Source of the DNA: Trypanosoma brucei
Lineage: Eukaryota
Assembly (NCBI GenBank): GCA_000002445.1
Contig: AL929603.2
Coordinates: 832,001-896,000 of the forward strand
Length of the DNA: 64,000 nt
Reading direction: 5' to 3'
Shown one piece after another: positions 12,001-18,000 of this stretch (its first letter is position 1; every line of letters starts with the position of its first letter). A program made the position numbers.

Positions 12001-15000
12001 CATTTATTTCACTTTTCATTTACTCTCACTTTACTTTACTTTACTCTCACTTTACTTTTTCTCTCACTTTACTTTACTTTACTCTCATTTCTCTCCTCTC
12101 CTACACATCAACGGCACTTCCTTTCTCCCGGCTGCACGTTTTTTCCTTTTTGACTGTTTCACTAGTCGCTCTCTTTTATTCTCTATTTTTTTTTTTGCTT
12201 CACTGTTTACACTTTCACACACATCTATATTATTTCTATCCTGCATTTATTCATTGATATCCTCTTCTTTTTCTTCCTCTTTTTGTATTTGTATTTCCAC
12301 CCTATCATATACGCGTTGATCCGTTCGGTTCTGCGTATATATATATATATATATATATATATCACCATACTCAGTCCATAGTCAAAGGACTAGAGGGGGG
12401 TAAAAAAAAAGGGGGAATAGTGAAAAGGTGGTTAACTCCCGTGGTGTGTGTTTCTTTTTTTTTTTCTTTTTTTTTTTTGTGCGTGCGTTTCCACCGCCCG
12501 CCTTCACGTCGACACACATCCTATATAAACCGTACCACCACACAGGAAAATAAAATAGTTGGAACAAATAAACAAACGAAGGGTACGTGGTGAACAGGAG
12601 GAAAGAAAGAAGGAGAGAAACGCAAGGGGAAAAGGAAGGTGGAGGGATCGTTACAAAGCATAAAGGGGGAGAAAAAACGTCACGGAGGAGGGAAAAGATA
12701 AGGCAAGACAAGGGAAGGAAAAAGAAAAATAAAAAGAGAAAAGAAAAAGGATATTCCACGGTACACCAACATTGACATTTAAAGGAGAAGTACAGGTGGT
12801 AAAGAGGGGAGCAGTGCCACTGAATTGTGGGGGATTGCTTTCATCTTTACAACTCTAATGTTTCACCTTCCCAGGGCGGTACAATGTGCCTTGATTGCCT
12901 CAGCGTCTCCCTCCTCGTTACGATACGCTACGAGGTGTATAGGAACCTCTACAGATGGACCCGGTGGGACGCGTAGGGGATCGGCGCCTACAGCTGGCGG
13001 ACGTCGCGGGAGGCCATCAGCTCACATGCGTAATGAAGCAGCAATAAGCACGAGTGGTGGTGCTGCAGCAAGTAGGAGTGCTTCACGCCAGGGGGCGCAC
13101 ATAGATTACGCCGCTGTTAGTGATGGGAGGACCACCAGTCGACCCGGTGTTTCCTCCTTTACGAGAGCGGCAACAACAACACTTGGAACAGTAGGAGGGG
13201 GAGGAGGAGTTACAGGCAGTAGCGTGTCGCAGCTCTCCATGCAGAACGTAATGGAGGCGAATCAAAATCGAGTGTTAAGTCGGCAACCGCTGCGTCGCAC
13301 AGCGAGTCAGACCGCAGCAGGAGGGCTTCAGGCAACACCCTCAGCATCTGGTGTGCAGACCGCGCCGATGGCAGCACCCGCCACGCAACGGCAGCAGCCG
13401 CAGCAACAGAACCGTCAAGTGGCCCGAACGTCGACGTCGATACCGGTGCAGCCGCTGCCGACATTATCCTCCGTGCGGCCGCCGGCAACGAAGTCTCCAG
13501 CCAGCAGCAGACCAGCTATCGCAACGTCACCCAGTGGAACGGCAAGGAGCTTGCGCACGCCGCGAACGCCACGGGGGACAAAGGCTGCTGCGAAACCATC
13601 AAGTGCCGCCGCAGCCGTCAACATATCTGCGGCTACGACGGCGGGCGCGAGAGCGGCGGCAGCTGCGATAGTGGCGAGAGCGTCACCCACGAGAGTTGCG
13701 GCGGCCGGGGCCGCATCGGGGACCACCACCACAACAACAACAACTGCCGCAGGTGTGCGAGCGCGAGGATCAGTTCCTAGTCCCGATACGCGGGCTGCTT
13801 TGGAGAAGGCCATGCAGGCGGTGAATGCTGCGGTCAAGTCGGCAACACCCGCAGGGACGACGGTACCCATTGCAGCAATGGCCACCAGACCAATCAGCCG
13901 TGCAGCTGTTGAGGAGGCGATGCGGGCGGTAGACGCGGCCGTGACGGCCACGAGAGGTGCCACTACGGCAGCGAATGTTGTGCCACCCCGTTCTCGGGTA
14001 TCGAAATCTGCCCCATCGCCACGAACACCCTGGGGAACTAGACCAGCAGCTAAAGCCACGACGCAGGTGCCCGCTTCAGCGCCTGCTGTCACCCCAACAG
14101 CAGCGGCACAGGGACGTGTGAGATCTGCGGCTACGACACCGACTGCAACGGGAAAAACTTCACCTGCAAGGGCTCGGCGAAGGGCATCACCACGAGGCGC
14201 AGGGGCGACAGCTGCGGAGGCATCACCGGTAGCGAGGCCGGTTCCGGCGGCAGTAAACACAACCAAAGTATCCGAAACGGCTGCAACAGAGGCGGCCGTG
14301 GCCCGAGCCTTAGCGGCCGCAGCTGCGGCGGCGGCACCTTCAAGGGCGAGGACGGCACCGAAGGCAGCGGGATCGGCAACAACACCTGCGAAAAAACATG
14401 TAACTGTAGTTACGCCCACGAGGACTCCGAGAGCCGCAGCTGCGACCCCTCAAGCGGTGACCGTGGTGACTCCAACACGGTCGGCGGTTGCAACAACACC
14501 TGTGAAGCCACAGGTCGCAGTAGTAGTAAGTCCCACGCGAGCGACTCGACCGACTTCGCCGCCGGCAAAACCTCAGGCGGCGGTAGGTACGCCGGCAAGA
14601 GCGGCATCAGCAGTAGCACCCGCGAACTCCCAAATGATGATAGTCACACCTACGCGTGCGGCACGATCCACTTCGGTCCCTTCCAAGCCCGGAGTGACGG
14701 TGGTTACCCCCAAACGTGCACCCCGGGCAGCGTCAACGCCTGCCAAGTCCCAAGTAACTGTGGTTACGCCCACAAGATCCCCGAGGGCAGGCGCTGCACC
14801 CGTAGCATCACCGGCAGTGGAAAAGGCCCCCGTTCCCGCTGCAGCAAGTGTAGGGACAACAGAAACTGTTGCAACACCAACTCCGAGGCGGCGTTCAGCT
14901 GAGAGCGGAGCCAACACACCAAAGGGAAAGAGATCAGCATCCGGTAAGAGAGGTGCAGTAGATGCAACGGAGGAAAATTCCAAGGCTAGTAGAGTGACCA

Positions 15001-18000
15001 CTCCTACGTCAACCGTGGCCACGACACCGCCGCGTGCCGAGGTTTTGAGGGATCATAGTAGTCAAGCAACCACTACCGGTGGTGGTGTGGCCAACCCATT
15101 TCGTGGGCTTCACAACCACATCACACGTAGCTATCGACTCGATCAGCTTCAGGCGGCGATGAAGATTCATGATCTGTTGTTAGGCCGGCAAGAGGTCAAG
15201 TCCGGTGCATTTTCATTTATTCGTTTTGCATGCGGACCGAAGTTCATAAATGACCACCGTGAGATTGTAGGACCGGACGCTGGTGGTGGTGTTGGTGTTA
15301 GTGGTGCCGATGAGAAGAAAGGCAGTAGCCGCAACAGTAGCCGCACCAATGGCAGTGAAGACTGCCCACTTGTCATTGCTGAACGTCTCCTTTCGTTTCC
15401 CCCACATATGCACCACTTTCACACCGTCTGTGGTCGAGAGAACGTTCCATGTGACTTCTTTGCCGATATCGACTTACCGAATGAAACCCCGGCCGGCGGG
15501 GAAAAGGCGTTGCTTGAGGTGTTGAACTATCTTGACGTGCGATTGGAGGCGATTGGTTTTTCGCAGCCATCGTTCCTTGTTCTTACCAATGAGGTTCCGA
15601 GTGCGGGGAAGGTTTCATACCATCTGCATGCCCGTTCCATGGGGACACAATCTGATAGTGGTGGAGCCGCAGCTGCCGGTTCGATGGGTTCTTCTGGTGG
15701 GAGTGGTGGAGCCGGAGTTGATGAGCATAGTGCCGGTGGTGATGTGAAGCAAGGTAGGGGTCGATCAGCTGAGGGTGGTAAGTCCAGGGCCTCCCATGGA
15801 AAAATTGTTGCCTTTCAGGACTATCGTGTTGTAAAGCTTCTTGCCGATGAGGTGAACACAACCCTCGGCAGGACGGTAATTGATGAGCAGTGCTACCGTG
15901 TTAACGGCATGCTTCGCTGTGCCTACAGTAGTAAGATAACTGTGCCACAGGGGATGCCCTTATCCTCCAACACTGCCGGAGGATATCATAGAGGAAAGCG
16001 GCTAGTTCCGCTCTTGAAGGCGAAAGACACTGCGCTTCAGAAGCGTTTAGACGATATGGCTGCCCACTTATGTACTCTTAGTGACGCTCAGATACTGGAG
16101 CGGACCTTTTGCATTCGCACCGCCCCCGTTAAGGAGCGGCGCGTTACAGAGAATGAAGACGTTGATAACGCTCAGAAGTTGTTGAGGGCGAGGAGTGATT
16201 ACCTCCGTTCCTTCAAACTCATTCGTGCAAAGAACATTGTAGGTGCTCAGAATGCAAAGCCTGTAGAGTATGATGCCTATGGTAATGTTGTTTCGAGGTA
16301 TTTAACCGAATCCGCCAAGTGGCATCGTTTCAAGACAGCTGTGGAAAAACTTCACCGCCTGCCGCCACGAGCTGCGGAATGTTACGACATTTGGGTGCGT
16401 GTGGGCCTTGCATTGCACAATTTTAGCAACGAGGACCACGTGTTTGAGGAGTGGGTCCGGTTTTCTCTTAAGTGCCCGCAGAAGTATTCGCGTGAGACGT
16501 GCAGGCGGAAGTGGCAGCAATTCGATCGCAACCCCGATGCGCTGAATTGGAGACGTGGATTTAATTATTTGAATAGTACCGTCTGGCGTTCTGTACCGGG
16601 TTGTTAGTGCAGGAGGAAAAAGAGGCGGCAGGGGGCGGTCAGCAGGTTTTGCTTCCGGGCTATAATCTGTTGTGCCACACGTCTTCTTTTTTGTCTTTTT
16701 GTTTTTTTTAGTTCTTGTTTTGGTGTTGTTGTGTTGTACCGCTGGGCAACTCATTGCAAGAGGCTGTGTTTCTTTCTTTCTTTTTTTTTTTAATACTTTC
16801 TTTATTTAGTGAGTTGTTTCATTCCATTGAGGTTTGGTGGTGGGCAACGGGCATGCATCATGAAGGGGGGGGGTGTGGGGGAGAGGGGGATGGGAAGTTT
16901 TGAGTTTATGAGGGAAAAATGTAGCAGTGGAAGGGAAGAGAGATGCATTTCATTATTTTAATGTGCTCCCGACTTCTTTTTACACACTTTCCTCTGCGTG
17001 TGTCTCTGCATGTGTGTGTGTTTTTTATTTTATTATTTTGTTTTGCTTCTTTCTATTCTCGAATGCATTTTTCGCTCGTACTTCTCAGCGTATCGTCTGT
17101 ACTCGTTTCAGAGTTGCTCCTCCTCCCCCCCTCTCTCCCTTTTTCCTTCCTTCCTTCCCTCCTTCCTTCCTTACGTTTTTACTTCAACTCCCTTTTTGCT
17201 TTTACGCCAATTTTTGTTTATTTTCCTCTTCCTATTTTTTTTTCGTTTTTCTTCTTTTCCCTTTTTTATATTGTTGGGCCCCTTCCTGTTGCCACAGTGA
17301 CTGTGGGACCCTCACCTCCTCTTTCTTCGTCTTCCCATTTTTTTTTCTTATTTATTTTATTATGTATTTGTACATCAAAGAGAGCATCGCGAATCTTTTT
17401 TGAACATGTTCCTTCCTTGCGTGTGTTGTCCGTGTGCCTGTACGAATTTTTTTTTTTTCTATCAGGTTTAGAAGTTTAATCGCTTGTGAGGACATGTTTT
17501 TGTTTTAGGCGTTTGTACACTTCTCTTCTTTTTATCAAAGCGATGTAACGAATGCAAAACAAAGGCGAAGAGGTGAAACAGAGGAAGGAATAAATGAAAA
17601 GTAAATAAGAAATAAGAGGGACGTTTTGACTGACGGAGGAAAAGAAAAGAAGAAAAAAAGAAAAAAGGGGAAAAGGGGGAAAGGGGAAAAAAAAGAAAAA
17701 AAAATAAAAAGAGAAGAGAAGAAATACATTAGGATCTATTGACATTTTGTCATGTGTTTGTGTTACTCCTTTTCTTTTCTTTTTTTCCTTTTCTTTTGTG
17801 TTATTATTATTATTATTATTATTTATTGTTTCCCCCTCTTTCCTTCCATATATTTCACTCTCTCACGTAAACATGCATGTTGGTTTCATTTCATGCATGT
17901 ATGAGTGTGTTAGTTTGAGTAAGTGAGAGCTTAAACTAATTGATAGAAAACAAAAAAAAATATAAATATATATATATATATATATATTGGCGTAAAAACA

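Follow-up and report, generated by a model that had tools for sequence, protein, structure and literature searches.

The window analysed here, a stretch of 64,000 nucleotides of the Trypanosoma brucei genome (assembly GCA_000002445.1, contig AL929603.2, positions 832,001 to 896,000 of the forward strand; all positions below are those of the window), carries on its + strand the nuclear gene that encodes PRI2; the parasite has two mitochondrial DNA primases, and PRI2 is one of them. PRI2 was reportedly characterised by Hines and Ray in 2011. The open reading frame (ORF) spans 12825..16607 in the ORF listing of the window, and its first ATG at 12858 opens a complete coding sequence (12858..16607, + strand) of 1249 amino acids (aa) followed by a TAG stop codon, in agreement with a preliminary description of the locus, which had proposed one frame with precisely these borders. 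The gene, its function and the existence of an N-terminal extension are already known from the literature; what we add is the anatomy of this extension, its conservation and its taxonomic limits. Specifically, the identity, domain architecture, catalytic motifs and fold of the protein as well as the distribution and conservation of its tail were obtained in the present work, while published studies are the source for the enzymatic activity, for the protein being essential, for the effect on minicircles and for the location at the antipodal sites.

The assignment to PRI2 follows from an exact-sequence look-up, in which all 1249 residues were identical to a protein of T. b. brucei TREU927 (XP_001219095.1/Q4GYH6), and an identical record from T. 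equiperdum (SCU64458.1) carries the name ‘primase 2’. The locus had previously been described as encoding a kinetoplast DNA (kDNA) primase resembling PRI1 or PRI2, and the exact match narrows this to PRI2 itself. The T. b. equiperdum and T. b. gambiense proteins are of equal length and 99% identical (9-10 substitutions), and the orthologues of T. vivax, Leptomonas and Novymonas are likewise named primase 2. For the 1249-aa protein, we computed a mass of 129.4 kDa and a pI of 11.1, which supports the assignment, as a 2022 review describes PRI2 (Tb927.1.4010) as a very basic protein of 129 kDa with a ‘long N-terminal extension’ (PMC10719067). Four features tie the protein to the identifier Tb927.1.4010: how it is named, its size of 129 kDa, its basic pI and a contig of chromosome size, chromosome 1 of TREU927. 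We found no difference from published PRI2 in length, mass, basic character or possession of the extension. Of note, clear PRI2 orthologues of T. conorhini and T. cruzi, with both Pfam domains of the family (PPL5 and PriCT_2) and 60-63% identity over the catalytic part, are named ‘DNA repair protein RAD50’ at NCBI, which looks like a propagated misannotation. As for the searches themselves, a full-length query of a word index was swamped by low-complexity words and returned two proteins, while the catalytic part alone returned 32 orthologues. An Rfam search of the window gave no match.

According to the literature, PRI2 is essential, serves as the minicircle primase and resides at the antipodal sites of the kDNA, where it was localised with an in situ C-terminal hemagglutinin (HA) tag (PMC10719067). 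Template-dependent primer synthesis by PRI2 is reported in the secondary literature (PMC10719067; PMC4538821), and a genome-wide screen for loss of kDNA placed primase 2 second (PMC13191291). Besides, PRI2 remains with DNase-treated flagellar extracts and, among the replication factors in those extracts, is the only one that depends in its abundance on all three of TAC102, TbmtHMG44 and TbKAP68 (PMC10374059). The second kinetoplast primase, PRI1 (Tb927.8.2550), is an archaeo-eukaryotic primase (AEP) of the clade that comprises nucleocytoplasmic large DNA viruses (NCLDV) and herpesviruses; like PRI2, it has a PriCT-2 motif, is essential and is found at the antipodal sites (PMC4538821; PMC10719067), yet it is encoded on chromosome 8 and has been assigned to maxicircle rather than minicircle replication (PMC10719067).

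The enzyme makes up the C-terminal part of PRI2. Conservation among orthologues sets in at the string NPFRGLH, at aa 746, so that the catalytic part comprises the last 504 residues and the N-terminal part 745. The two-part layout was thus anticipated by the preliminary description, which had put the enzyme at ~450 and the upstream part at ~800 residues. Strong profile matches cover both domains: Pfam family PPL5 (Prim-pol family 5, PF18168) matches from aa 770 with an E-value of 2.7e-154 (514.1 bits against a gathering cut-off of 26.2), and PriCT_2 (PF08707) matches aa 1165-1224, C-terminal to the AEP domain, with an E-value of 4.4e-12 (46.6 bits against a cut-off of 22). Both families are present in 32/32 orthologues, and the best match overall was to a kDNA primase and not to one of the nuclear PrimPol-like proteins.

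All three AEP motifs lie within the catalytic region (aa 746-1164; 15093..16349, +). Residue invariance was judged over 30 aligned orthologues that range from Trypanosoma to the free-living Bodo saltans. Motif I, DFFADID (aa 866-872; 15453..15473, +), contains the metal-binding acidic residues, with D866, D870 and D872 invariant throughout, and motif II, SYHLHA (aa 920-925; 15615..15632, +), is invariant at S920, H922 and H924. In the motif III region, VIDEQCYRVNGMLRCAYSSK (15876..15935, +), residues D1009, Y1013, R1014, G1017, R1020 and K1026 are invariant, and the string VIDEQCYR is kept unchanged. The helical PriCT-2 domain (aa 1165-1224; 16350..16529, +) includes YDIWVRVGLALHNF at aa 1176-1189, and most residues of its core are invariant as well. 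Motifs I and II and the PriCT-2 block are hence where the preliminary description had seen them. While the enzyme part as a whole is 75% identical between T. brucei and T. congolense, the PriCT-2 region is the best-conserved portion of PRI2, with 83% identity over aa 976-1249.

An AlphaFold2 model of the catalytic part, built on the orthologue alignment, reached a mean predicted local distance difference test (pLDDT) score of 78. When this model was compared with the PDB by Foldseek, human PrimPol came out on top (E 9e-6, probability 1.00, target-normalised TM score 0.5-0.6), followed by the UL52 primase of herpes simplex virus 1 (HSV-1), the PrimPol C962R of African swine fever virus (ASFV) and E5 of monkeypox virus (MPXV). 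These matches came from the fold comparison, as a search of the PDB by sequence returned only a marginal match (E = 1) between the PriCT-2 region and that of ASFV C962R. Human PrimPol, HSV-1 UL52, ASFV C962R and poxvirus D5/E5 share the AEP fold and motifs I-III with PRI2 at 10-14% sequence identity (10-12% for PrimPol), and C962R also shares the PriCT-2 domain. On the other hand, PRI2 lacks the fused helicase of C962R and D5/E5, and it has a long basic tail and low-complexity inserts within the AEP domain that these primases do not have. PrimPol proper is marked by a UL52-type C-terminal zinc finger in place of PriCT-2; in PRI2, no zinc-finger family was among the Pfam matches at E-values up to 1, where PPL5 and PriCT_2 were the only families reported. 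Since motifs I, II and III and the catalytic fold are all present, and the protein likewise falls into PPL5, the PriCT-2 family and the PRI2 orthologous group, its assignment as an AEP of the NCLDV/herpesvirus/PrimPol clade is secure and agrees with the published activity. We found nothing that speaks against either the identity or the catalytic assignment.

Two Gly/Ser-rich low-complexity insertions interrupt the AEP domain. The first one, between motifs II and III (aa 926-978; 15633..15791, +), splits the Pfam match into two stretches; it is 46% identical to its T. congolense counterpart, as opposed to 73-83% in its flanks, and pLDDT falls below 50 at residues 187-233 of the modelled fragment (to which 745 is to be added for protein numbering). 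The second (aa ~805-835; 15270..15362, +) is also modelled with pLDDT below 50. Both insertions vary in sequence and charge by lineage, being Gly/Ser-rich in T. brucei, whereas those of T. cruzi and Leishmania are acidic or rich in Lys. As they are variable in every lineage, the catalytic core tolerates large surface loops.

At its other end, the protein begins with a conserved presequence, MFHLPRAVQCALIASASPSSLRYATR (aa 1 to about 30; 12858..12947, +), that can be aligned to the N-terminal ends of the complete orthologues from T. grayi and T. cruzi as well as to an ORF located upstream of the T. vivax gene. Across these four species, M1, R6, Q9, C10, A11, S15, S17, L21 and R26 are invariant, and the T. 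vivax ORF is 46% identical to T. brucei aa 1-26 (BLASTP, E 3.7e-5). The presequence is presumed to be a mitochondrial import signal, in view of the published mitochondrial localisation of PRI2. Given that it sits at the first ATG (12858) and the enzyme follows after the tail, the tail must be translated in between. Further upstream, the 2.4-kb intergenic region contains a 38-nt tandem repeat in 2.1 copies (12009-12087, +), and a strongly purine-rich (GA) tract lies immediately 5′ of the PRI2 ATG (12600-12857, +).

Between presequence and enzyme extends a basic, lineage-restricted low-complexity tail of ~715 residues (aa 31-745; 12948..15092, +). Measured over aa 1-745 or 1-769, the N-terminal part consists of 22% Ala, 14% Thr (13.9%), 10% Pro, 10% Ser and 10% Arg (9.8%), with 3.0% Lys and 0.9% aromatic residues, which results in a pI of 12.0 and a net charge of +73 to +76. 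The region upstream of the enzyme had been described as A/T/P/S-rich throughout; this composition is borne out, with the qualification that the first ~30 residues are the conserved presequence. The Thr/Pro-rich repeats invited a mucin-like, glycosylated reading, which we rejected as the protein is mitochondrial. Opposite the Ala-rich part of PRI2, there is an antisense ORF of 334 aa (13415-14419, − strand), almost certainly not a gene but a by-product of GCN-rich codons that leave the opposite strand free of stops.

The most regular element of the tail is an array of seven tandem units of 19-20 aa (14400..14813, +), starting at aa 515, 534, 554, 574, 593, 613 and 633, each with a core of the VTVVTPTR type and a match to [ST]Px[KR]. 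The preliminary description had counted seven copies of a 19-aa repeat containing VTVVTPTR. The number stands, the period is slightly looser, and the exact core is limited to three units, with degenerate versions (AVVVSPTR, AAVGTPAR, MMIVTPTR and VTVVTPKR) in the other four. The array is not what composition would produce by itself: the pattern [VI]x[TS]PxR occurs seven times where 0.20 occurrences are expected, a number reached in none of 5000 composition-preserving shuffles, and [ST]Px[KR] occurs 14 times where the same shuffles predict 2.4. At the DNA level, Tandem Repeats Finder detected no repeat beneath the seven protein units, because the units are old and have diverged at synonymous sites. 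Indeed, the three VTVVTPTR cores, while the same in protein, use different codons at most positions, and mean DNA identity between units amounts to 62% in the cores and 41% in the linkers. When the array alone (aa 505-656) was used as a query, no match was found at E-values up to 1 and even its own protein was missed, which makes this search uninformative as to whether the motif occurs elsewhere.

The tail is likely disordered, as the preliminary description had proposed. An AlphaFold2 model of aa 1-770 had a mean pLDDT of 31 with no residue above 70, which supports this proposal without proving it, the underlying alignment comprising effectively two distinct sequences. The sole secondary structure that the model places in the extension proper consists of helices, at low confidence, at aa 128-139, 249-285, 309-328, 348-372 and 474-491, the last four of which coincide with islands conserved in T. 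congolense, and it draws the repeat array as coil. A charge-hydropathy (Uversky) plot was uninformative, since Ala and Val raise the hydropathy and both tail and enzyme fall on the ‘folded’ side. Three of the predicted helices (aa 249-285, 309-328 and 348-372; 13602..13973, +) are Ala-rich, correspond to conserved T. congolense blocks and contain a duplicated motif, TRAALEKAMQAVNAAV and SRAAVEEAMRAVDAAV. The helix at aa 474-491 falls within a further island, SETAATEAAVARALAAAAAAAAP (aa 472-494; 14271..14339, +), that is invariant from S472 to P494, with 23/23 residues identical in T. congolense.

Beyond these islands, the tail is collinear and 44% identical between T. brucei and T. congolense, and the conserved stretches also include RTPRTPRGTK, ASPTRV and the repeat cores. 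T. congolense has five strict cores (VT[IV]VTPTR or VKIVTPTR) and one degenerate copy, spaced ~25 aa apart. Among T. b. brucei, T. b. gambiense and T. equiperdum, the tail shows neither indels nor any change in length. The variation in repeat number that had been raised as a question is consequently confined to differences between species, with seven units fixed throughout Trypanozoon. The conserved islands speak against pure neutrality, as do the synonymous changes that have accumulated in cores of identical protein sequence, and the tail looks constrained in the T. brucei/T. congolense lineage, as judged from sequence comparison.

Outside this lineage, the tail is not found. In an exhaustive HMMER search of 1.84 billion representative proteins with aa 216-745, its sole relative was the T. 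congolense orthologue (E 3e-35). It is absent from the T. cruzi-group, Leishmania and Bodo orthologues, which are 530-830 aa long, and in the complete orthologues of T. cruzi, T. grayi, T. conorhini, Leishmania, Leptomonas and Bodo, NPFRGLH is preceded by no more than 90-240 residues. The pI of this linker is 5-7 in the T. cruzi group, which makes it acidic to neutral there, and ranges from 5 to 11.5 outside Salivaria as a whole. The tail hence appears to be confined to African (salivarian) trypanosomes, and to the question of whether the N-terminal region might be missing from all orthologues, the answer is a split one: absent in most kinetoplastids, conserved in T. congolense.

Two salivarian gene models deserve comment, as both begin downstream of the position expected from T. 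brucei. The annotated T. vivax ‘primase 2’ (GCA_021307395.1, SOPI01000705.1, 5001-6917 of the extracted locus) comprises 638 aa without a presequence. On the same strand, ~2 kb further upstream (locus position 2937), the above-mentioned ORF starts with MLQIPRLIQCAAVVSTSTTSLL, i.e. the conserved PRI2 presequence, and the DNA from there to the annotated start encodes a basic Ser/Ala/Thr/Arg/Gly-rich sequence with a pI of ~11.3. This intervening DNA is made of near-identical 525-nt tandem units (locus starts 3343, 3868 and 4658), and a partial repeat copy of 266 nt (4004-4269) breaks the reading frame. Probably, the T. vivax gene model is 5′-truncated, whether through an error in the assembly or because the frame is truly disrupted. 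Provisionally, T. vivax PRI2 probably also has a long basic extension of ~800 aa, within a protein of maybe ~1300 aa, that would be unrelated in sequence to the T. brucei tail: past the presequence, we found no significant similarity between the two. The T. congolense IL3000 orthologue (1031 aa) starts within the tail, opposite T. brucei aa ~219, lacks a presequence and is probably 5′-truncated, too. In our working picture, a long basic extension is a salivarian feature, provisionally as regards T. vivax, and its sequence is homologous in the T. brucei and T. congolense groups alone.

Long basic appendages have precedents. In histone H1-type tails, S/TPKK motifs act as minor-groove binders. 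H1 tails and the H1-like KAP proteins of the kinetoplast resemble the PRI2 tail in having repeated [S/T]-P-x-[K/R] motifs within a highly basic, Ala/Pro-rich and probably unstructured region, whereas the PRI2 cores read TPTR, SPTR, TPAR or TPKR, each after a beta-branched stretch of the VTVV kind, and are not the S/TPKK of H1. Another comparison is offered by Pol beta-PAK, a mitochondrial DNA polymerase of T. brucei with a Pro/Ala/Lys-rich N-terminal extension of ~300 aa (PMC10719067). As with PRI2, a long basic Ala/Pro-rich appendage is attached here to an enzyme of kDNA replication or repair whose paralogue or orthologues do without it. However, the Pol beta-PAK extension is Lys-rich, while the ~715-aa tail of PRI2 is rich in Arg and Thr and contains a defined repeat, and the likeness is one of composition only. 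The relation of the PRI2 tail to PAK- and H1-like tails is best seen as an analogy in charge and Ala/Pro content, not as membership of a class.

Taken together, these data suggest a protein of three parts. The presequence would direct PRI2 into the mitochondrion; there, the 504-aa unit of AEP and PriCT-2 domains synthesises the RNA primers that start minicircle replication at the kinetoplast antipodal sites; and the basic tail may serve to tether the enzyme, either to kDNA or to the antipodal sites with their basic and protein-dense structure. For this account as a whole, i.e. the PRI2 gene, encoding an imported AEP/PriCT-2 minicircle primase with a basic salivarian tail for which we prefer a tethering role, we estimate a probability of roughly 0.93. 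The tether itself is our leading guess and is built on analogy; the preliminary description had likewise put forward, as hypotheses, a part of the tail in localisation or in binding to DNA or a partner. We favour it because of the extreme charge of the tail, its dense [S/T]PxR motifs, the enrichment of the antipodal sites in basic proteins without known identity (PMC10719067), the precedent of the Pol beta-PAK extension, and the retention of PRI2 after DNase treatment (PMC10374059). In its most specific and quite tentative form, the tail might be an anchor particular to African trypanosomes, in which the VT(V/I)VTPTR array and the Ala-rich helices bind either kDNA or the scaffold that depends on TAC102, TbmtHMG44 and TbKAP68. 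If so, such an anchor would spatially restrict minicircle priming, and PRI2 would be one of the basic proteins behind the staining of the antipodal sites by ethanolic phosphotungstic acid (E-PTA).

Several observations weigh against a conserved role for the tail. Complete orthologues from T. cruzi, Leishmania and Bodo manage with a short linker before the enzyme, which means that PRI2 can do its central work without a tail. It is Arg (9.8%) and not Lys (3.0%) that supplies the basic charge, so that the tail is not strictly of the PAK or H1 type. The presumed disorder is drawn from a model with a very shallow alignment, and past the presequence, the extension predicted for T. vivax shows no significant similarity to that of T. 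brucei.

Some of these points would equally suit a functionally neutral tail, a tolerated low-complexity expansion of a hypervariable linker between presequence and enzyme with no role in localisation or binding. The linker is, after all, the least conserved part of the family, varying widely in length and pI outside Salivaria; the T. vivax extension is unrelated and made of near-identical, evidently recent 525-nt repeats; and the tail has a single relative, in T. congolense, and no fold that AlphaFold2 could find. Yet a neutral expansion would hardly be expected to stay collinear with its T. congolense counterpart and to retain islands of ~100% identity, foremost the 23 of 23 residues at aa 472-494. 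Neither would it readily explain repeat cores that are identical in protein but differ at most synonymous positions, with higher DNA identity in cores than in linkers, nor a length that is unchanged among T. b. brucei, T. b. gambiense and T. equiperdum. We consider neutrality plausible, albeit less likely than not.

In another rival reading, the tail would chiefly be a multivalent docking scaffold for proteins, more than a DNA binder, with VT(V/I)VTPTR(x)PR peptides and Ala-rich helices as linear motifs that recruit, or are held by, a partner at the antipodal sites or close to the tripartite attachment complex (TAC), possibly under the control of [S/T]P phosphorylation. Short conserved cores, diverging linkers and a spacing that shifts from 19-20 aa in T. 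brucei to ~25 aa in T. congolense are typical of a linear-motif array. Besides, the retention of PRI2 in DNase-treated extracts is no less compatible with a protein scaffold than with DNA binding, and its requirement for TAC102, TbmtHMG44 and TbKAP68 points to a protein-based anchor (PMC10374059). On the other hand, there is no known partner, and the motif was not found in other proteins, by what was a technically weak search; a net charge of +73 alone would give strong non-specific affinity for DNA; and proline-directed phosphorylation in mitochondria is not established for PRI2. Docking as the principal role of the tail is a serious rival to the tether, though it strikes us as rather unlikely.

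Very improbable is the notion that the long N-terminus is an annotation artefact, with the real start at an internal methionine (e.g. M593/M594 or M768) and the low-complexity region being 5′ untranslated sequence. It could appeal to the T. vivax and T. congolense gene models, which begin further downstream, and to the fact that a frame in Ala- and GC-rich sequence may happen to lack stops, as is the case on the opposite strand over 334 codons. We rejected it on account of the presequence common to T. cruzi, T. grayi and T. vivax, which sits at the first ATG and would be lost; moreover, the tail is kept as protein in T. congolense, the published size is 129 kDa, and the shorter models of other species lack the presequence and look truncated. 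That the gene should encode PRI1 or one of the nuclear PrimPol-like proteins PPL1/PPL2 is hardly conceivable, for even though all four are AEPs of one broad clade and the closest solved fold is that of human PrimPol, the protein is exactly identical to one named primase 2, its size and charge match PRI2, Tb927.1.x denotes chromosome 1 while PRI1 is Tb927.8.2550, and PriCT-2 is present with no PrimPol-type zinc finger reported by Pfam.

PRI2 is an essential, parasite-specific replication enzyme and in this capacity has been regarded as a possible drug target since 2011. That such an enzyme should have a long repetitive appendage had seemed striking when the locus was first described; the surprise is lessened by the earlier mention of the extension in the literature. 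What continues to be of interest is what the tail does, as a constrained and lineage-specific stretch with repeats that is attached to an essential enzyme of replication: African trypanosomes have added ~700 basic residues to a protein that works without them in T. cruzi, Leishmania and Bodo. As the antipodal sites are poorly defined in their composition, showing that the tail clearly acts in targeting or retention would open a way into the construction of these replication centres, and the mapped islands and repeat cores mark the residues to be mutated in this context.

With respect to its surroundings, the polycistronic unit in which PRI2 lies looks like an ordinary one for T. brucei, with every large ORF of the window on the + strand. 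Five of these ORFs (353-912 aa; 5683-8421, 20809-22428, 29807-30868, 41932-43212 and 44435-46804) had no Pfam match at E-values up to 0.001-0.01 and are presumably kinetoplastid-specific hypothetical proteins. The others include genes for CDC23/APC8, an aminotransferase, a metallophosphatase, BBS5, a leucine-rich repeat (LRR) protein, RNase H2B, a DnaJ protein and a FAZ1-like protein. The last of these is encoded by a 1660-aa ORF (58861-63843, +) with a FAZ1 conserved domain (E 1.3e-7), which itself holds a 90-nt (30-aa) tandem repeat at 59659-59915, in 2.9 copies with a 73% match.

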